Shown piece after piece: positions 2,118 through 15,816 of a stretch of DNA of 19,959 bases (its first letter is position 1; each line of letters opens with the position of its first letter). The notes below the pieces were generated by a model. That model was not told where the DNA came from and did not search any database. It saw nothing but the letters and a program-made list of their open reading frames with translations. The stretch is from a virus: UHGV virus genome UHGV-1722906; one strand, 5' to 3'. Position numbers and translations under genes: made by a program.

Positions 2118-3974
2118 CTATATGGTTACGCCTTTACTTATAACTCTACGGCGTCTTCTACGTATACCTGACGAGTTCTGCACATACACATTACCTCGCA
2201 TTTCCTGTTCAGCAAGCCAGTCAAAATTAGGGTTCAGAATTTCCATCGCGGCAGTTGCATAGTTACGGCAATCAAGAGGCTCGTTACGCTCGTAGACTTT
2301 CACCCACTTTTCTTTTGTCTGCCCATTTTTATATTCAAATATTTTTTTCTCTGATAATAGCCCTTTAAAATAATCAGTATCATATCCTCTGTCAGAATCT
2401 AATGGAAAATGCATATAACCAGGACCAGGATCATGTAGCTTAATTCGTGCCATGATGGTCCCTTTACCATCATCAACCCCCAAATTAAACAACATAGCAC
2501 CTACACGGTTATTATTGCTTGGCTTTCCTATAAACGGTAAACCTACCCCACCACGACCTCTGATAGAGTATATTCGCCTTGATTCTCGCGGCTTAGTAAA
2601 GCGATATACCTCTGTCGTAAAATGCCCACCAGAGTCAATACAAACGGAAGAAATCTGTAATTTTCGACCGTCACGAAATGACCAGCTACGGAGTAAGTAT
2701 TCATCAAGTTGTTTCCAGACAACATCTTGTGCGGGATCGCCCGGAAATATTTTATATTCAATCCCCCATGATTCCTTACCTTTTCCCCAACCGACCAATT
2801 CACAAACTAAATACGTGTCCTGTACGTCAACACCAGCACTTAACAATAAAACATCATCTGGTAAAAACTCTTCAAACCTTATTCTGCGTTGCAACAAGTA
2901 TTCAGGATCGATATCGTCTTTAGCATCCTCTTTCCATGGCTCACCCAGCTTAAGGTTAATAAACTCCATTAATCCATTTTTATCGCGGTTTCTGGTTGCT
3001 TCCGTAAATTCTTCAACCAGCTCTGACAATGCAACCCACGGGGAGTAAAGACTGTTAATATGAAAACCAACAATACCTTTAACTCCAGTATGTTCAGCTA
3101 TCCATACCCCCTTCGCCAACCAATCAACGTCTGGTTTACCAGATCCGCGCATAATCCCGCCGCACTCACAGCACTCATATCTGGCCGTTTCCGGTAACGC
3201 CTCACCTGAATCGCTCTTATCCCATCTGACTTGCGACCATTTCATCACCTGCATGGTGCCACAACATGGGCAAGGAACATGGTAGTAACGCTGATCGGAG
3301 AGCTTAAACCACTTGTGGATTTTGCTCGTTTCCTCCAAAACAGGAGTAGAAACAAAAACTTTCTTACGATTATGAAAGTTGGTAGTACGCTGAATACCTA
3401 GTTTTAGTGGGTCGCCCTCCTGCGTCACACCGTAACGATCAATCTCATCAGCTAACAATATTCGAATTGGCCTGGATGCAAGACCTGCTGGGGAATTAGC
3501 ACCAACAAGTGCTATATATCCACCAGCGTAATGTTTCATACGTATAGTCGTGCTGGACTTTTTGGCTGCACCGCGCCCCTCTTTCCCTTCATGCAGCTTG
3601 TGTTTCAAACCAGGGGAATATTTGAACGTCGGATCAATACGCTCTTTTGAAAAAGCCTCAGCCGCCTCTACCGTTGGATAAATCATCAACTGAGGAGATG
3701 GCTCCTGATCTGCAAAGTAACCCATAACATTTAGCTGTAATTCGGATTTACCAATTTGCGAGCTACATTGCATCACTACTGTTTCTGTATCAGCGTCACC
3801 AATAACATCCATTGGTTCACGCAAATATGGCACTCGGCTTGTACGCCACGGCCCTGGCTCTGGAGACGTTCCCGGCGCTACATGACGATACTTATCAGCC
3901 CATTCGGAAACAGTTAGCCGTGATTTAGGGCGAAGCGCACGGAAAAAAGCGGTGCTCCATACTGTTTCGCCCAT
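2118..3974 (-). CDS. Terminase large subunit (lambda gpA-like)
   Basis: 618-aa ORF with a cysteine cluster HVPCPCCG...CCECGG like the lambda gpA ACPHCG region. Lies between the small terminase and gpW-like genes. Confidence 0.9.
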   Translation of the reverse strand: MGETVWSTAFFRALRPKSRLTVSEWADKYRHVAPGTSPEPGPWRTSRVPYLREPMDVIGDADTETVVMQCSSQIGKSELQLNVMGYFADQEPSPQLMIYPTVEAAEAFSKERIDPTFKYSPGLKHKLHEGKEGRGAAKKSSTTIRMKHYAGGYIALVGANSPAGLASRPIRILLADEIDRYGVTQEGDPLKLGIQRTTNFHNRKKVFVSTPVLEETSKIHKWFKLSDQRYYHVPCPCCGTMQVMKWSQVRWDKSDSGEALPETARYECCECGGIMRGSGKPDVDWLAKGVWIAEHTGVKGIVGFHINSLYSPWVALSELVEEFTEATRNRDKNGLMEFINLKLGEPWKEDAKDDIDPEYLLQRRIRFEEFLPDDVLLLSAGVDVQDTYLVCELVGWGKGKESWGIEYKIFPGDPAQDVVWKQLDEYLLRSWSFRDGRKLQISSVCIDSGGHFTTEVYRFTKPRESRRIYSIRGRGGVGLPFIGKPSNNNRVGAMLFNLGVDDGKGTIMARIKLHDPGPGYMHFPLDSDRGYDTDYFKGLLSEKKIFEYKNGQTKEKWVKVYERNEPLDCRNYATAAMEILNPNFDWLAEQEMRGNVYVQNSSGIRRRRRRVISKGVTI

Positions 3975-3979
3975 GAGGT

Positions 3980-4532
3980 TTATTCTTCCTGCTTAATAAA
4001 TCGGGATTCCTGGAGCGCCTGAAGCGCAAAATTAATCTCGTCTTCAATAATGCGTTCGATCTCCCTGGCTGTTTTGCCTTCACAACGGGGAGCTGCTCTT
4101 GGAGCAATACTAAATAAGCGGCTACGCAATTCATTAGCTGCCAGAAATGCATCATCCCTGACCGCATCTTTAGCGATGAGAGAGCCTTCCTTTTCTTCAA
4201 ATTCAAGGCGTTTCAGCTTTGCCTGATAAATTTTTTCTGCGGTCTTAGCCTTGTTGAATTGCACCGCAACACCGGAAGTACCACCAGCTAATCCGGCATC
4301 ATCAGCGGGTAACTCTGGTTGTTCCGAAGATATCCCATGCCCTCTTTTTCCGTTTTCAGCAGATACCTCACGACCAACCTGTCGGCTCGCTTCATAAGCC
4401 GCACTAGCTTTATCAAAATCCAGCTTGCCGCTTTTCAGCACTGGAATGCGACCGGAACGACAGAGCTTCGTAACCATTGCCGGAGAAATACCTTTCCGGC
4501 GGGCAAACTCTGACTTACTGACGATGGCCATT
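3980..4532 (-). CDS. Terminase small subunit with N-terminal HTH
   Basis: Track ORF 3980..4540 begins with TTG. The ATG at about 4532 (MAIVSKSEFARRKGISPAMV...) overlaps the stop of the upstream ParB-like gene as TAATG, so it is the more likely start. N-terminal helix-turn-helix and a charged coiled C-terminal half are typical of Nu1-type small terminases. Confidence 0.7.
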
Positions 4533-5121
4533 ACTTGCAACCATTAGCAAGATACTGAACAAATCCCTCATGAGTTTCATGCGCGTCGTGGTACTGACGA
4601 TAAACATCCAGCAACAATGCAATTTCCATATCCGTCGCGGGAATACGTTCTTTATCAATAGCCAGGTACTTAATTTGAACAACAGGGGAAGAATTATCGT
4701 CTTCTTCCTGCGGCTGTTCATCGCTTAACATTTCGTCAAGCTCTGCATCATTAAACCCAAGCAGATCAATATCAAAATCATCATCCATTAACGCTTTGAC
4801 TTCTTCGGCCAGAAGCTGCATATCCCAGCCAGCATTTAAGGCCAGCTTGTTATCTGCAATCCTGTAAGCCTTCTTCTGTTTTTCAGAAAGGTTACTCAAC
4901 CGAATCGCTGGAACTTTATCCATTTCCAGAATTTCGGCTGCTGCAAGCCGCCCATGCCCCGCAATCAGTTCATTCTTTTCATCGATCAGCACAGGATTAG
5001 TGAAACCGAACTCACGGATACTGTTCACCAACTGTTCAACTTGCTCATCTGAATGAGTCCGTGAATTTTTGGCGTATCTGAGCAGCTTACCGACTGGTAA
5101 ATATTCGATTTTTAGAGCCAT
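4531..5121 (-). CDS. ParB-like nuclease domain (ParB/Srx fold) protein
   Basis: 196-aa ORF with motif LIDEKNELIAGHGRLAAA, matching the GxxR box of ParB N-terminal domains. Stop overlaps the terS start. Confidence 0.75.
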   Translation of the reverse strand: MALKIEYLPVGKLLRYAKNSRTHSDEQVEQLVNSIREFGFTNPVLIDEKNELIAGHGRLAAAEILEMDKVPAIRLSNLSEKQKKAYRIADNKLALNAGWDMQLLAEEVKALMDDDFDIDLLGFNDAELDEMLSDEQPQEEDDNSSPVVQIKYLAIDKERIPATDMEIALLLDVYRQYHDAHETHEGFVQYLANGCK

Positions 5122-11330: not shown

Positions 11331-11514
11331 AAGAAAAACGGGGCTATTTAACATAATGGACGTTATCGGCACCACCGGATCACCGTTCATTGTCGGATCT
11401 AAAAAATCCGCTCAAAAGATCATGTTTTCCTGGGCGTTTTCCACCGTTTTTTATGTTGCTTATTTGTTAATGAAATCTCGTTTTCAGTTTCGCCTCATTT
11501 TCGACGCGAAAGCC

Positions 11515-11805
11515 CTATTTTTGTGACTTTACTCCTGGCATATGGACTTCCCAGCGACGAATCCCCATAGCTGCGCAAAAATCAGCCACATAATTCAATC
11601 CCGCCCATTCGCGGATACCACCACGGGCTTTTTCAATGAAAACGGCAATCCCTTTTTTATTGAGAGCAAAAAGCCGCCAGCTTTTTGTCACTTCGTCCTG
11701 GGTAGCCACAACACAAGTGAAAGCTCCCATGCGATACAGGTCCAAGAACTCTTTGCGTGTTTTGCGTACAAGTTCCATAACAAACCTCATATTTGCATGT
11801 TTCAA
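11515..11805 (-). CDS. Hypothetical protein (96 aa)
   Basis: ORF overlapping the upstream HTH gene by 4 nt (ATGA). No recognised motif. Confidence 0.5.
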   Translation of the reverse strand: MKHANMRFVMELVRKTRKEFLDLYRMGAFTCVVATQDEVTKSWRLFALNKKGIAVFIEKARGGIREWAGLNYVADFCAAMGIRRWEVHMPGVKSQK

Positions 11806-12101
11806 ACATCTGTTTTGTTATCAATGAAGATTAACCCTAACCCAGCGAAGTAACACAGCAGCGCCCAGGCTGCATACGGAATGCTGGATCTGGATGTGGA
11901 CTCCTTTAACATCTGCCAATTGCGAACATTGCGACTATCTTTTAAGCCAAGTTTTTTGGCCAACTGCGAGCCGCTCATTCCGGTCAGGCCAATGACTGCC
12001 CGAACTTCTCCACATGTAGGAGACTCCCATTCATCCGCTTTTTTTAAACAAGCCGGATTCAACATTTTTAAAACAGTATCTTTATCCATAACCATCTCCA
12101 T
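11802..12101 (-). CDS. HTH DNA-binding protein with C-terminal hydrophobic segment (99 aa)
   Basis: Helix-turn-helix-like stretch LTGMSGSQLAKKLGLKDSRNVRNW and hydrophobic tail IPYAAWALLCYFAGLGLIFI. Palindromic operator upstream. Confidence 0.55.
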   Translation of the reverse strand: MEMVMDKDTVLKMLNPACLKKADEWESPTCGEVRAVIGLTGMSGSQLAKKLGLKDSRNVRNWQMLKESTSRSSIPYAAWALLCYFAGLGLIFIDNKTDV

Positions 12102-12129
12102 TTATTATATCTACGATGGTAGGAAATCT

Positions 12130-12146
12130 TTTCCTATGTGGCAATA
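12130..12146. promoter_or_regulatory. Palindromic operator candidate TAGGAAA-tct-TTTCCTA, with a third TAGGAAA half-site near 12200
   Basis: Perfect 7-bp inverted repeat 29-45 nt upstream of the HTH gene start; likely autoregulatory site. Confidence 0.4.
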
Positions 12147-12479
12147 GAAATTTACTACATTGCGTATAAGACAACTTTTCTATGTCTAATAGGAAATGAT
12201 GTTTCTTACGTTTTATCGCGTTCTGATGGCTACTGTGTGCGTATTTATCGACGTTTATTGATAAGGCTCCCCCTTCCTCCTGCAAAGCCCGGCCGTAGGC
12301 CTTATTTCGTCCTTATATAAATTGATTTTGTATAGTTCGAAACGTGCCGTTTCGAAAAGGATGATCAGGCTACTCCATGCCTCCGGCAAGTGCCGGAGGA
12401 GGTATATTTGAGCGTAGCGACTCGAACCGGCGCGAGCTTTAGCTCGCTGCAAGGGCGAACATATTCACAGGCAAAGCCT

Positions 12480-12731
12480 GCGTAAGTTAAATAAAGAAAG
12501 TTTTAATAAAAGAAAGTGATTTTGCATTTATTTGTTTAGTGCATCTATTATAAAAAACCATTTGCATATACATATCAAAACTGTGGATAACTTGATTAGT
12601 TGATACCTGTAAAGGCGATATTTTTGCTGAGTTCAGGTTTAGAGAAAATTAATTTAGCTTGTTTTTTGAACAGCTATTTTTTTGCGACGTAGATAATCCT
12701 CCGGTAAAACCGGATTCATCATTCAGGTGAG
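12480..12731. other. Candidate plasmid origin (IncFII oriR-like): AT-rich region plus a consensus DnaA box
   Basis: TGTGGATAA (reverse complement of TTATCCACA) at 12582-12590, about 145 bp downstream of the repA stop, next to an AT-rich stretch at 12480-12580. This matches the known repA-then-ori layout of IncFII replicons. Confidence 0.55.
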
Positions 12732-13580
12732 TTAATGTTGGAGTGATTTCCAGGTCTTTCTTAGCCTGTTATAACGCTGCTCAACGAGGGATCGTAAATA
12801 TGCAAGGTCAGCACCAGGATACATGCCATCAGCAAATTCCTGGCTAACCTCTCTAGTGATTTGATGACGAAGTTCGGCCTCTCCCTTTTCCTGAACAAGA
12901 CGCGCAGCTCTCTCCGCTGCTTTCTGTTTTGCCTTTATCTCTCTGGCCGTCTTCCTCTGACGCCATACATTCTCCATCTGCTCCTGAATAACAATACGCT
13001 TATAATCAGCCTCCGTTATCGCTTTTTTAAGCCGTTCGCTATTCTTCGCATTGAAGTAATTAAGTTTCTGGCTAACCGCACGTCTCCATGCTTGTTCAGT
13101 AATACCAACGGTTTCCAGCAGTTGATCACGAATCTCTATTTTCGCTGGCCAATACTGTTTATTCACCCGATCCCAGCGACGTTCATAATCAATAAAACCT
13201 AACGCTTTCAGTTGCGACAACGCCCTTGTACAGCGCGTTATAGACTTGTTCCCAGCTTCGGATACGGTAGACAGGCCGCAAAAATCAGCCAACGCCTCAG
13301 CACTAGCCAGAACCCGCTTAGAAATGATGTTTACATGGTGCAAAATCGCAGCGATCACAGCATTAATCGCCCGACGACGATGCTCGTTTATCCGGCGCTT
13401 CCGCTCTGACGGTTGATTAACGTAGAACGCAACCTCACACGTAAGATCACGCCCATTAATGCGCTGTAAAGCATCAGATAACACCAGCGGCAGCTTGTGC
13501 GTATGGTGCTTTGGAGGCTGGAACTCCGGCGACAAATTACAAACGTAAGCTGAACGTAGAGACGGCATTGGTCTATCCAT
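12732..13580 (-). CDS. repA: Plasmid replication initiator RepA (IncFII RepA1 family)
   Basis: From the ATG at 13580 (MDRPMPSLRS...) the protein is 283 aa and aligns by eye with R100/R1 RepA1 as I recall it, with RRRAINAVIAAI at the same residue positions as RRRAIDALLQGL and SITRCTRALSQLKALGFIDY against SITRATRALTFLSELGLITY. The track ORF extends to 13709, but those 43 extra codons overlie a terminator hairpin and are probably leader, not protein. Confidence 0.85.
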   Translation of the reverse strand: MDRPMPSLRSAYVCNLSPEFQPPKHHTHKLPLVLSDALQRINGRDLTCEVAFYVNQPSERKRRINEHRRRAINAVIAAILHHVNIISKRVLASAEALADFCGLSTVSEAGNKSITRCTRALSQLKALGFIDYERRWDRVNKQYWPAKIEIRDQLLETVGITEQAWRRAVSQKLNYFNAKNSERLKKAITEADYKRIVIQEQMENVWRQRKTAREIKAKQKAAERAARLVQEKGEAELRHQITREVSQEFADGMYPGADLAYLRSLVEQRYNRLRKTWKSLQH

Positions 13581-13589
13581 ATGTTCGCT

Positions 13590-13702
13590 CTTGCGTCCAC
13601 GGAAAACCAACGTATAATGGGAGTTGTCGAGGCGCCCATGGTTAATTGTTGGTTTTCCGTGGATGTCGCAAGAAGCCCGCAGATTTATCTGCGGGCTTTT
13701 TG
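13590..13702 (+). ncRNA. Candidate CopA-like antisense (countertranscript) RNA over the repA leader
   Basis: Plus-strand promoter-like TTGCGT-16-TATAAT (about 13591-13618), a long imperfect inverted repeat (13598-13615 with 13646-13663), and a perfect terminator hairpin AGCCCGCAG-ATTTA-CTGCGGGCT plus TTTTT (13674-13702). It is antisense to the repA 5' region and nothing on the plus strand is coding here. Confidence 0.4.
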
Positions 13703-13890
13703 TTTCCATATCTGGTCACTTTCCAACCAGACACCCACAATCATAACCACGTTACGTGGTTTTAAGAGAACTCTACCACAACACTTTCGGTCATGCACGA
13801 AGTCTCTCACTGATCGAACGATAATCCACCAGTAAAAGGATCTAAATTGGATCTCGTTTTGCGAGCATCATACTACTGGCCTAACTCCAG

Positions 13891-14445
13891 TCAATGATTC
13901 CCAGCCGGAAACCTGCGGTAAAGCGTGGATAAGGTAACATCGAAGATAATCGCTATCCGCTTACGTGAAACACCATTCGCAATAAGCCTTCCGATCTGTT
14001 CCCATTGCTCTGGTGCCAGCTTTGAGCGACGTCCTCCTATCCTGCCGTTAGCCCTTGCCACCGCCAATCCTGCACGCGTTCTTTCAATCATATTTTCCCG
14101 CTCCATCTCTGCGACTGCACTCAGCATCGTGTAGGCAAAGCGGCCAATTGAAGTGCTAATTTTTATCCCTTCCGTAATCGAAATAAACTCAATGTTGTTT
14201 GATAAAAAATGGTTAAGTAAATCAACAAGATGAATCAGAGAACGCCCCATTCGGTCCAGCTTCCAGACAATAACCGTATCGCCCGGCCGTAGCACCTTAA
14301 GTAGCTTATCAAGCCCTGGCCGTTTTGATTTAGCACCGGATATTTTATCTTCAAAAATCCGGTCACATCCTGAACTCCTGAGCGCCTCCAGTTGTAATTC
14401 CAAATTCTGGTCAAAAGTTGACACCCTCGCATAACCATATTGCAT
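13891..14445 (-). CDS. pin: DNA invertase, serine recombinase of the Pin/Gin/Hin/Cin family
   Basis: 184-aa ORF with N-terminal catalytic motif GYARVSTFDQ and a C-terminal HTH (IAIIFDVTLSTLYRRFP) like the Hin/Pin DNA-binding domain. Sits next to inverted tail-fibre cassettes. Confidence 0.9.
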   Translation of the reverse strand: MQYGYARVSTFDQNLELQLEALRSSGCDRIFEDKISGAKSKRPGLDKLLKVLRPGDTVIVWKLDRMGRSLIHLVDLLNHFLSNNIEFISITEGIKISTSIGRFAYTMLSAVAEMERENMIERTRAGLAVARANGRIGGRRSKLAPEQWEQIGRLIANGVSRKRIAIIFDVTLSTLYRRFPAGNH

Positions 14446-14510
14446 ACTTTCTAAACCGCGATTGTTGCTAAAAGCGGGAAAAAATATCGTTCAGACGACA
14501 CAGAGGCAAT

Positions 14511-14536
14511 TCGCAAAAACCTCGGTTTGCAGGAAA
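14511..14536. other. gix/pix-like 26-bp site A (extra site between pin and the functional left site)
   Basis: Reverse complement reads TTCCTGCAAACC-GA-GGTTTTTGCGAA. Its left half and inner flank are identical to the right site and the start of the expressed variable segment. Core is 49 bp from site B, so out of frame with it. Confidence 0.5.
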
Positions 14537-14558
14537 CGGTAAATCAGGCTTGCCGCCG

Positions 14559-14584
14559 TTATCGAATACCTCGGTTTACGAGAA
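14559..14584. other. Left crossover site B at the start of the silent Sv' cassette
   Basis: Reverse complement reads TTCTCGTAAACC-GA-GGTATTCGATAA; the outer half and about 21 bp of flank (encoding AAVIEY) are identical to the constant side of site R. Confidence 0.65.
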
Positions 14585-15280
14585 CTCGGCACAAGCGGGG
14601 AAAAAATACCGTTACTCAGTACGGCGAATACCTGGACCAATCGACAAACATTCAGTGGTGGCCTTTCTGGGGAACTGTCCGGCAATGCCGCTACTGCAAC
14701 AAAGCTGAAAACAGCACGAAAAATTGCTGGAGTTGGTTTTGATGGTTCTAGCGATATTTCAATTAGTGCCAAAAATGTCAATGCATTTGCACTCCGACAA
14801 ACAGGTAATACTGTTAATGGTGATACTTCCGTTGGATGGAATTGGGATAGTGGTGCATATAACGCCATGATTGGTGGCGCATCTGCATTAATTCTTCACT
14901 TTAATATAAATGCTGGTAGCTGTCCTGCCGTACAATTCCGTGTGAATTATAAAAATGGTGGCATTTCCTACAGGTCAGCTCGTGATGGTTATGGATTTGA
15001 ATTAGGTTGGTCAGATTTCTATACCACGACACGAAAACCATCAGCGGGAGATGTTGGCGCATATACTAAAGCGGAATGTAATTCACGTTTTATTACAGGT
15101 GTTCGTTTAGGAGGCCTGTCATCTGTTCAAACATGGAATGGGCCTGGTTGGTCTGATAAGTCAGGTTATGTCGTTACGGGTTCAGTTAACGGAAACCGTG
15201 ATGAATTAATTGATACAACTCAGGCAAGGCCAATTCAGTATTGCATCAATGGAACGTGGTATAACGCGGGGAGTATTTAA
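14561..15280 (+). CDS. Alternative tail-fibre C-terminal cassette (Sv'-like); promoterless, no start codon, expressed only after inversion
   Basis: Frame open from site B to the stop at 15280 per the track frame (track ORF 14867..15280 is its first in-frame ATG). Translates to ...LGLRELGTSGEKIPLLSTANTW...HFNINAGSCPAVQFRVNYKNGG...IQYCINGTWYNAGSI, a typical side-tail-fibre C-terminal domain. Confidence 0.75.
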   Translation: MEYLGLRELGTSGEKIPLLSTANTWTNRQTFSGGLSGELSGNAATATKLKTARKIAGVGFDGSSDISISAKNVNAFALRQTGNTVNGDTSVGWNWDSGAYNAMIGGASALILHFNINAGSCPAVQFRVNYKNGGISYRSARDGYGFELGWSDFYTTTRKPSAGDVGAYTKAECNSRFITGVRLGGLSSVQTWNGPGWSDKSGYVVTGSVNGNRDELIDTTQARPIQYCINGTWYNAGSI

Positions 15281-15282
15281 TT

Positions 15283-15816
15283 ATGATGCACTTAAAAAAT
15301 ATTACTGCTGGCAACCCTAAAACAAAAGAGCAATACCAGCTAACGAAACAATTTAACATCAAATGGCTTTATTCAGAGGATGGAAAAAACTGGTATGAGG
15401 AACAAAAGAATTTCCAGCCAGACACTTTGAAAATGGTCTATGACCATAACGGCGTTATTATTTGTATTGAAAAGGATGTTTCAGCAATTAATCCGGAAGG
15501 CGCAAGCGTCGTTGAATTACCTGATATTACAGCAAATCGCCGTGCTGACATTTCGGGTAAATGGATGTTCAAAGATGGCGTAGTGGTAAGGCGAACTTAT
15601 ACCGAGGAAGAGCAGAGGCAGCAGGCGGAAAATGAAAAGCAAAGCCTGCTACAGCTCGTCAGGGATAAAACCCAACTATGGGACTCACAGCTACGGCTGG
15701 GCATCATTTCCGACGAGAATAAACAAAAATTAACAGAGTGGATGCTCTTTGCGCAGAAAGTCGAATCTACAGACACTTCCAGCCTGCCAGTAACGTTTCC
15801 CGAACAACCAGAATGA
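15283..15816 (+). CDS. tfa: Tail-fibre assembly protein, alternative copy (Tfa') for the silent cassette
   Basis: 177-aa ORF; N-terminus MMHLKNITAGNPKTKEQYQLTK...[13 protein letters not shown] is homologous to the opposite-strand tfa. Confidence 0.85.
   Translation: MMHLKNITAGNPKTKEQYQLTKQFNIKWLYSEDGKNWYEEQKNFQPDTLKMVYDHNGVIICIEKDVSAINPEGASVVELPDITANRRADISGKWMFKDGVVVRRTYTEEEQRQQAENEKQSLLQLVRDKTQLWDSQLRLGIISDENKQKLTEWMLFAQKVESTDTSSLPVTFPEQPE

Follow-up and report, generated by a model that had tools for sequence, protein, structure and literature searches.

The window analysed here is the whole 19,959-nucleotide stretch of the virus genome UHGV-1722906 (one strand, 5′ to 3′, referred to as plus), and the subject of this study is a cluster of short hairpins at 12289-12481 that lies next to the origin of an IncFII-family replicon. 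The initiator gene repA (12732-13709, minus strand) encodes a protein of 325 amino acids (aa) with the Pfam domain PF02387 IncFII_repA (E 1e-43), and its homologue was labelled 'plasmid replication initiator RepA' by PGAP; by this identification the adjacency to a plasmid origin, which had been proposed in an earlier sequence-only reading of the same DNA, stands. When the window RepA was compared with RepA1 of R100, a 97-aa stretch alone could be aligned (40% identity). Downstream of repA follow, in this order, a perfect DnaA box TTATCCACA on the repA-sense strand (12582-12590, minus), three TGCAT(N)TA(T/C) repeats starting at 12523, 12540 and 12563 (span 12523-12570) and two AT-rich 15-nt direct repeats (12487-12501 and 12503-12517; TTAAATAAAGAAAGT and TTAATAAAAGAAAGT), an R1-like origin layout. 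By analogy, the 15-nt and TGCAT repeats, which by repeat search and sequence make up the AT-rich origin core (12482-12581), are likely to represent the unwinding element and putative RepA boxes, the latter name being given to the TGCAT repeats from their resemblance to AANCNGCAA, which we take to be the IncB boxes. A DnaA box that departs from the consensus by no more than one base (TGTGGATAA, TGTGAATAA, TGTGCATAA or TGTGTATAA) was found at the same place and in the same orientation in nine relatives (L004, L007, L010, L011, L024, L028, L044, L071 and R100) [note that L-numbers designate the compared sequences, among which L002 is R100, L085 is R64, and L081 and L082 are stretches of plasmid F], and none was marked at the equivalent place in L005 or L051. 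The hairpin region lies directly past the AT-rich origin on the side facing away from repA, and is bordered on its other flank by an open reading frame (ORF) of 99 aa (11802-12101, minus strand). The region is indeed non-coding in annotated relatives; the helix-turn-helix label once given to the 99-aa ORF could not be confirmed; its PGAP homologue is a hypothetical protein and no Pfam domain was detected.

A 650-bp segment that surrounds the hairpin region is 97-99.7% identical to 59 plasmids in PLSDB, each of ~48 kb, of which all 59 are typed as non-mobilizable and 58 come from Escherichia, while the 221-bp region 12270-12490 also matches the Yersinia phages vB_YpM_39, 41 and 44. Since these matches are accompanied by neighbouring genes for a hin-type invertase, tail-fibre and tail-fibre-assembly proteins and a RelE/ParE toxin, the source replicon is, on these sequence similarities, a ~48-kb phage-plasmid of E. 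coli/Yersinia.

All five short inverted repeats that had been noticed earlier were found, after slight correction of their coordinates. Hairpin 1, GGCC-gta-GGCC (12291-12301), is a 4-bp GGCC palindrome, too short for significance by itself; hairpin 2 (12336-12356) is a perfect 9-bp repeat, TTCGAAACG-tgc-CGTTTCGAA (9/9 complementary), which alone gives z -5.1 (0/200 shuffles). The third, CCTCCGGC-aagt-GCCGGAGG (12380-12399, plus strand), hereafter stem-loop II, is followed by a conserved tail AGGTAT (12400-12405). The fourth, GCGAGC-ttta-GCTCGC (12432-12447, plus), hereafter stem-loop I, turned out to be no more than the apical part of an interrupted hairpin of 13 bp (12422-12458, plus), and the fifth, CAGGC-aaa-GCCTG (12468-12480, plus), hereafter hairpin 5, is overlapped by a DnaA-box-like sequence ATATTCACA (12461-12469, plus). 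Besides the 13-bp hairpin, a mini-hairpin GAGCGTAGCGACTC with a d(GCGNAGC)-type triloop GCGTAGC, predicted by folding at 12410-12423 (plus), had been missed. When 12280-12490 was folded as single-stranded DNA (ssDNA), the plus strand gave -42.6 kcal/mol against -28.0 +/- 3.1 kcal/mol for dinucleotide shuffles (z -4.75) and folded better than 200 out of 200 shuffles, whereas the minus strand gave z -3.53 and was matched by 2 of 200. The folding of this region thus exceeds chance, which answers the earlier caution that shuffled sequence might give similar structure. Hairpins 1 and 2 have no counterpart by BLAST beyond the 97-99% identical phage-plasmid family; the sole change in hairpin 2 within this family is in the loop, and the substitutions around both hairpins lie in loops or flanks, not significantly so and too few to test. 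These two hairpins may extend the hairpin array (the origin of phage G4 has a third stem-loop) or may form a protein operator.

The other three hairpins (12380-12399, 12432-12447 and 12468-12480) belong to a conserved module. Sensitive BLAST of 12270-12490 detected 244 PLSDB plasmids, and beyond the phage-plasmid family, in plasmids of Klebsiella, Enterobacter, Citrobacter, Serratia, Yersinia (pYV) and Pantoea, conservation was restricted to 12372-12457 or its right half, with no annotation beneath the module match in the plasmids so found. A pattern scan (exact match, one genome per species) returned 67 loci, of which 66 look genuine, nearly all on plasmid contigs of Enterobacterales; the same type of scan on viral contigs gave 121 matches, 116 without the hairpin (chance) and five real, two of the window family and three of other replicons. 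Side by side, the relatives show an invariant frame, CGAACCGGCGCG-(stem-loop)-CGCTGCAAGGGCG, around a central stem with compensatory change, the invariance of the flanks being in part imposed by the exact-match search pattern.

The position of the module with respect to repA is fixed. Where repA is annotated in the relatives retrieved, its stop is followed after ~270-360 bp by the match, on the opposite strand. By tblastn, an IncFII-type RepA, either R100-like (47-80% identity) or window-like (24-37%), was identified in 47 of 78 instances, always on the opposite strand and 275-635 bp 3′ of the module; one further instance has a partial RepA hit (aa 9-159) in the same relative orientation at 1,411 bp. 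A conflicting orientation was found in none of the 78, the remaining instances having a RepA too divergent for the two tblastn queries or being cut by a contig end. The context upstream of the module is entirely different among its carriers. Most relatives have a ter site (GTTGTAACTA) just 5′ of stem-loop II, so that the module is placed between origin and ter, while no Tus-binding ter core (GTTGTAACTA, at most 1 mismatch) is present anywhere in the window.

The core of the module is arranged as TCG-aa-CC-g-GCGCGAGC-ttta-GCTCGC-t-GC-aa-GG-g-CGA, in which T12448 is bulged and the internal loops are AA/G and G/AA, and this is the minimum free energy structure of 12422-12458. Among 48 distinct sequences, 99.7% of the cells of the 13-bp core are paired, as against 21-44% with slid partners, and in five pairs both partners vary. 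The window and L025 have T:A as the outermost pair where most sequences have C:G, and G:C at 12430:12450 gives way to A:T in L007 and L038, G·T being found as an intermediate. In the 48-sequence alignment, stem-loop I is 100% paired, and all three of its pairs that were left free by the search pattern covary (GC 27/AU 21; AU 29/CG 11/GC 8; CG 45/GC 2/UG 1). The unpaired bases of the core, that is, AA opposite G, G opposite AA and the bulged T, are invariant in every sequence retrieved. Likewise the CTG at 12447-12449, inside CGCTGCAAGGGCG, is the same in every instance, BLAST-found ones included, although the pattern in part forces this invariance.

The hairpins on both sides of the core are conserved as structures. 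Stem-loop II, taken as the best hairpin upstream of the core in 69 unique sequences (in a handful of which another hairpin was picked), is represented by 27 distinct stem sequences with changes on both sides of four pairs, and is kept even in R100. The spacer between stem-loop II and the core often carries a further small hairpin of GCGNAGC type; at the position of the window mini-hairpin GAGCGTAGCGACTC, the relatives have GAGCGTAGCGAC, GGCGCAAAGCGCC, GACGCGAAGCGGC or GGCCGCAACGCGGC. Hairpins of d(GCGNAGC) are reportedly of exceptional stability, as Hirao et al. are said to have found. The counterparts of hairpin 5 (NNCTGTCC-aca-GGRCAGNN, CCCGTTTTCC-aca-GGAAAGCGGG and similar) keep its position with covarying outer pairs around a DnaA-box-like centre, TGTCC-aca-GGACA or similar.

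Folding energy is uninformative as to which strand folds (z -3.19 versus -2.96), and therefore the non-Watson-Crick pairs of the relatives were counted. Stem-loop II contains 24 G·T/T·G pairs against one C·A, hairpin 5 contains 23 T·G against one A·C, and the CTG(C/T) variant retains a G:C or G·T pair; these cells cover several positions and lineages, but few independent lineages rather than 24 separate events. The excess of 24:1 and 23:1 indicates, as far as can be read from the aligned sequences, that it is the plus strand, antisense to repA, that folds. If replication proceeds away from repA, this strand would be the leading-strand template.

We therefore consider, as a tentative interpretation with somewhat less than an even chance of being right, that 12372-12481 is the origin-distal part of an IncFII-type origin and acts as ssDNA, namely as a single-strand initiation signal, probably for DnaG at the CTG. 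Among the roles suggested by the sequence-only reading (single-strand initiation, a small RNA with structure or an array for protein binding), the first fits best with the covariation, the G·T bias and the fixed orientation to repA, but two of the five hairpins fall outside the module. As far as the annotations and the literature found show, the module would be an undescribed and distinct variant among origin-associated single-strand signals. By the polarity rule of ter sites, those of the relatives are so oriented as to let a fork leave the origin and to stop a returning fork. Because of this orientation and of the literature on R1 (PMC10331603), replication is taken to run leftward in window coordinates. 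RepA, with the help of DnaA, would melt the AT-rich segment 12482-12581, and DnaB helicase would then unwind away from repA. The plus strand, now single-stranded, would fold into stem-loop II, the GCGTAGC mini-hairpin, the 13-bp core and the DnaA-box-like hairpin, an array that may resist coating by SSB, the protein that binds single-stranded DNA, and expose the invariant unpaired bases to a host protein. DnaG primase, as the most likely candidate, would begin the first primer of the leading strand at the position opposite T12448, copying stem-loop I in the leftward direction, a start site that is modelled on primase at the phage G4 origin.

At this G4 origin, primase starts at the T of the CTG in CTGCAAAG, 3′ of stem-loop I (PMC6783573); in our comparison the annotated G4 primer (3970-3997) starts at the T of the CTG in CCCTACTGCAAAG, just 3′ of stem-loop I in an array of three hairpins, and phages alpha3 and St-1 keep GGCGTTAGCCGCC...CTGCTAAG. 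The module shares with these G4-type sites a row of stable template-strand hairpins (three to five are predicted on the plus strand, comparable to the G4-origin fold), a GC-rich stem-loop just 5′ of CTG-CAA(A/G)G (G4 CTGCAAAG, window CTGCAAGG) and an apparent dependence on a host rather than a plasmid factor, and, with the G4-type G site of R1/R100, a location on the leading-strand template beyond an IncFII origin. A box CCCCCTTCCTCCTGCAAAGCC at the left edge of the hairpin region (12272-12290, plus) is also conserved in relatives, namely L004 (CCCCCTTCCTGCCAGACTG), L005, L111, L170 and L206 (CCCCCTTCCTGCCAGAC and similar); its last 10 bases are the G4 start-site 10-mer CTGCAAAGCC, and a related box CCCCAGCCCTGCCAGACC lies on the minus strand of R100, ~45 nt 3′ of the canonical G-site CTG. 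Shared with oriR of R1/R100 is likewise the gene order, in which repA is followed by the DnaA box, the RepA box, the AT-rich region, the palindrome, stem-loop II and ter.

The canonical G site itself is a separate entity. A simple descriptor, GGCG-N3-4-GCCG-N0-12-CTG, matched G4 (3976-3998), alpha3 (5047-5069), St-1 (5046-5068), R100 (45431-45447, minus) and R64 (2241-2257, minus). The G4-like site of R100 (CCGGCGTAAGCCGG TACTG), 93% conserved in R64, is located ~410 bp past the origin and beyond two ter sites, in agreement with the G site that we take to lie 400 bp downstream of oriR in R1/R100. Its layout fits that of R1, in which ter sites separate oriR from the leading-strand start (PMC10331603). 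The proposal that the module is this G site moved to the origin was rejected, as the G4-like site of R100 lies ~410 bp out and most carriers of the module also have a region homologous to this far region. The window has neither a canonical G4-like G site near the origin nor a ter site, so that the module is its only candidate priming signal.

At the oriR-distal edge of R100 (L002 44990-45089, minus), the ter site, stem-loop II and the TGTCCACAGGACA palindrome are kept, but stem-loop I and the CGCTGCAAGGGCG core are lacking, 36 model positions being replaced by 21 nt; conversely, the window lacks the ter sites and the far G site. R64 (IncI1; L085 ~1806-1885, minus) carries a diverged module, CCCGCGC-gtta-GCGTGGG AGGTAC ... 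GGCCGCTGCAAGCGAAGG, between the origin and the region of ter and G site, with four AANCNGCAA boxes adjoining its DnaA box. In L057, a G-site-like CCGCC-gtaa-GGCGG followed by TACGG, without CTG, lies ~190 nt 5′ of the module, its hairpin being a compensatory variant of the R100 sequence CCGGC-gtaa-GCCGG TACTG. Plasmid F has by the simple descriptor a G4-like GGCGGTTGCCGCCGCTGCTG (L081 47414-47436, plus) in a resD-like integrase gene near RepFIA, which may be one of the published F ssi sites or may be due to chance.

Several points of this comparison weigh against a primase site. The signature GGCG-WWA-GCCG...TACTG common to G4, alpha3, St-1, R100 and R64 gave nothing at the window origin, and neither the covariance model of the module (E <= 10) nor its nhmmer profiles gave a hit in G4, alpha3 or St-1, so that the module, unlike G4-type sites, has no detectable homology to them in sequence or structure and abuts the origin instead of lying ~400 bp off. 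Most module-bearing plasmids, and R64, also carry a homologue of the R100 far region, usually including the G site; because many carriers have this region, the module is not needed simply as a primase site. R100 even replicates without stem-loop I. The main difficulty is the CTG: in the supported fold its C and G are paired within a helix and the T is bulged, whereas the CTG of G4 stands in open ssDNA, which leaves melting of the outer helix, recognition of the bulged T or a reader other than primase. The priming role is thus a proposal made by likeness to G4. Given the missing signature, the lack of a hit with the phage models, the coexisting far site and the loss in R100, the module is best described as a second, distinct element that abuts the origin.

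When plasmids F and R100 were searched with the profile hidden Markov model and the covariance model of the module, the best non-self matches, all on the transferred strand, were Frpo2 (L082 8183-8262 = plasmid F 58183-58262, minus), Frpo1 (L082 13560-13653 = plasmid F 63560-63653, minus) and the R100 homologue (L002 2970-3063, minus), identified as such by their position relative to ssb and ygeA (PMC9849209), with weak E-values (model 0.33-2.6; nhmmer 0.26). Frpo elements are single-stranded promoters, the transcripts of which can prime complementary-strand synthesis (PMC9849209; preprint 10.64898/2026.01.09.698686). The Frpo hairpin, GCGACCG-gaa-CGGTCGC followed by TGCAAGCC, has the T bulge and the G/AA loop of the module, and its local fold repeats T bulge, GC step and G/AA loop within an outer helix of differing sequence. 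Both elements thus possess the sub-hairpin GC-GCGNNN(N)-loop-(N)NNNCGC-T-GC-AA-G (27 nt, with CTGCAAG) as well as an upstream hairpin followed by GGGAGC, and the Frpo motif is located on the strand known to be single-stranded. The pattern CGGCGCG-N9-12-CGCTGCAAG was found in the transfer half of F in Frpo1 and Frpo2 only, and never in 100 shuffles. A metagenome scan for the Frpo-type variant retrieved ~28 Frpo-like sequences, in which the apical stem hardly varies and so affords no independent test of covariation.

The module itself was rejected as an Frpo element. An Frpo is ~300 nt long, rebuilds -35/-10 boxes for RNA polymerase and belongs to the leading region of transfer, whereas the module is ~100 nt long, has GC-rich stems of 5-9 bp and is found beside repA at the vegetative origin of a non-mobilizable phage-plasmid; no -35/-10 hexamers were found in the module by linear scan, a weak test since the same scan finds none in Frpo1 either. 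The likeness of the sub-hairpins nevertheless appears, from the sequences compared, to tie the module to elements that act on SSB-coated single strands. That the 13-bp hairpin (CGCTGCAAG) is an unrecognised host-read ssDNA signal common to the leading-strand template at IncFII/IncI-type vegetative origins (those of phage-plasmids included) and to Frpo elements on the transferred strand, both of them settings in which priming has to begin anew on SSB-coated DNA, is an idea that we put forward as speculative and rather unlikely.

A reader of host origin is suggested by the behaviour of the boxes beside the DnaA box, which vary with the type of RepA: TGCATNTAT in the window, L005 and L051, TTGCAGNTA in L004, TTGCGGATA in L007 and CCCTTGCAGTT in R100-like origins. 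Because the core of the module remains unchanged while RepA and its iterons diverge, the sequence comparison argues for a host factor, though not in an airtight manner. The principal alternative, which we regard as unlikely, is that the initiator reads the module as a site at the boundary of the origin. In this view CGCTGCAAGGGCG, in duplex or single-stranded form, would be bound as an inverted RepA box and would pair with the RepA box beside the DnaA box, thereby looping or delimiting the origin, while extrusion of the hairpin would stabilise its opening. RepA could read CTGCAAGGG of the module, a point that also tells against a host reader, because CCCTTGCAG, which R100-type origins carry next to the DnaA box ~190 bp off across the AT-rich region, repeats CTGCAAGGG as an inverted copy of 9 nt, and because an NGCAA-like core is common to the module and to the putative RepA boxes of most types (TTGCAG, TTGCGG, TGCAT), except the L024/L028 type, which has neither a TTGCNG nor an extra CNGCAA site; for these two reasons RepA binding is kept as the main rival. 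The sole conserved part of RepA is, moreover, its DNA-binding stretch, and R64 has the diverged version GGCCGCTGCAAGCGAAGG. Against this stands the failure of the box to co-vary with the iterons of four RepA types. A duplex site would explain neither the compensatory changes in the stems nor the prevalence of G·T over A·C (24:1 and 23:1); Frpo of conjugative leading regions, unlinked to RepA, has this hairpin too, with CTGCAAG; and R100 works without the CGCTGCAAGGGCG core. Thus, as to the protein-binding array suggested earlier, RepA may act at the CTGCAAGGG box, but covariation and G·T pairs favour a single-strand structure.

Less probable still is a site for helicase loading or primosome assembly, in which hairpin 5 would serve as the A site of the ABC primosome, or the array as a PriA-type site, for loading DnaB on the plus strand. 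An A site, a DnaA box inside a hairpin in R6K, is said to have been described by Masai, Nomura and Arai in 1990, and hairpin 5 resembles it as a DnaA-box-like sequence in a covarying ssDNA hairpin by an unwound region: the relatives carry TGTCCACA or TTTTCCACA in the stem and loop of the hairpin directly 3′ of the core, with covarying outer pairs and the G·T bias, and the window ATATTCACA overlaps the 5′ arm of hairpin 5 by two bases. Some relatives also carry, in the spacer hairpin, GCGAAGCGG, which resembles the AAGCGG motif of n′ sites. The window box is, however, imperfect (ATATTCACA), L004-type origins have plain DnaA boxes without a hairpin there, and the invariant core and T bulge are left unexplained. 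DnaB loaded on the plus strand would, moreover, travel the wrong way, towards repA, against the direction given by ter polarity and R1 (PMC10331603).

We give a slightly lower probability, and hence little credence, to a structural single-strand element without priming, which would hold the origin open or would make a fork or a helicase that travels in the wrong direction pause or stop. The hairpins with their very stable GNA-type loops and the location between origin and ter in most relatives are in line with such an element, which may be likened to the stem-loops of the F leading region that delay strand conversion; a 2026 preprint describes one stem-loop element there as a replication barrier resolved by UvrD (10.64898/2026.01.09.698686). 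Stability alone, however, leaves the invariant unpaired AA, G, T, AA and G and the 100% conserved flanks unexplained, and the window family has no ter site with which the element could cooperate.

The weakest alternative, an RNA-level element, either a terminator shielding the origin from incoming transcription or the structured small RNA suggested earlier, is very improbable: the Rfam search of 11500-14500 (E <= 10) gave nothing in 12289-12481, no promoter-like site was found on the plus strand in 12050-12760 (the sole site, 12144-12116, is on the minus strand outside the module), the listed ORFs on both sides (9.5-14.4 kb) are all on the minus strand, the upstream context differs among carriers and the terminator tail is not conserved. 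Its supporting evidence is one terminator-like call on the plus strand (against 0.8 expected), stem-loop II followed by AGGTATATTT, with T-rich tracts a few bases past stem-loop II in several relatives, and the G·T pairs would equally be G·U in RNA. The T-run, however, is apart from the stem and missing in many relatives, and GNA triloops with C-G closure (GCGAAGC, GCGTAGC), which are abundant and of the DNA-specific GCGNAGC kind, point to DNA hairpins.

Two further features of the window were noted. At 13595-13705 (plus), antisense to the 5′ end of repA, there is a strong hairpin plus T-run terminator (AAGCCCGCAGATTTATCTGCGGGCTTTTTG), found via a sub-threshold Thr_leader match (31.9 bits), which probably represents the CopA-like antisense RNA controlling copy number. 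At 13891-15816, the hin-type invertase adjoins the tail-fibre and tail-fibre-assembly genes of opposite orientation, which suggests an invertible host-range segment of the phage-plasmid.

A large share of the antibiotic resistance and virulence load of Enterobacterales resides on IncFII-type replicons, and the usual description of their origin comes from R1 and R100, which happen to lack the module. If the proposed reading of the module as a single-strand initiation signal is true, it would revise the picture of the leading-strand start for most of their relatives, including IncFII(K), pYV, IncI1-like plasmids and phage-plasmids. The signal appears not to depend on the type of RepA and, if so, may offer a common host-dependent step that could be targeted and a portable part for engineered replicons. 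Through the likeness to the Frpo sub-hairpin, the priming of vegetative replication can be connected, in a concrete and testable way, with that after conjugation; should the shared hairpin prove real and be read by DnaG or another host priming factor, it would constitute a second, widespread class of primase entry site, and could explain the rifampicin-insensitive part of complementary-strand synthesis after conjugation.

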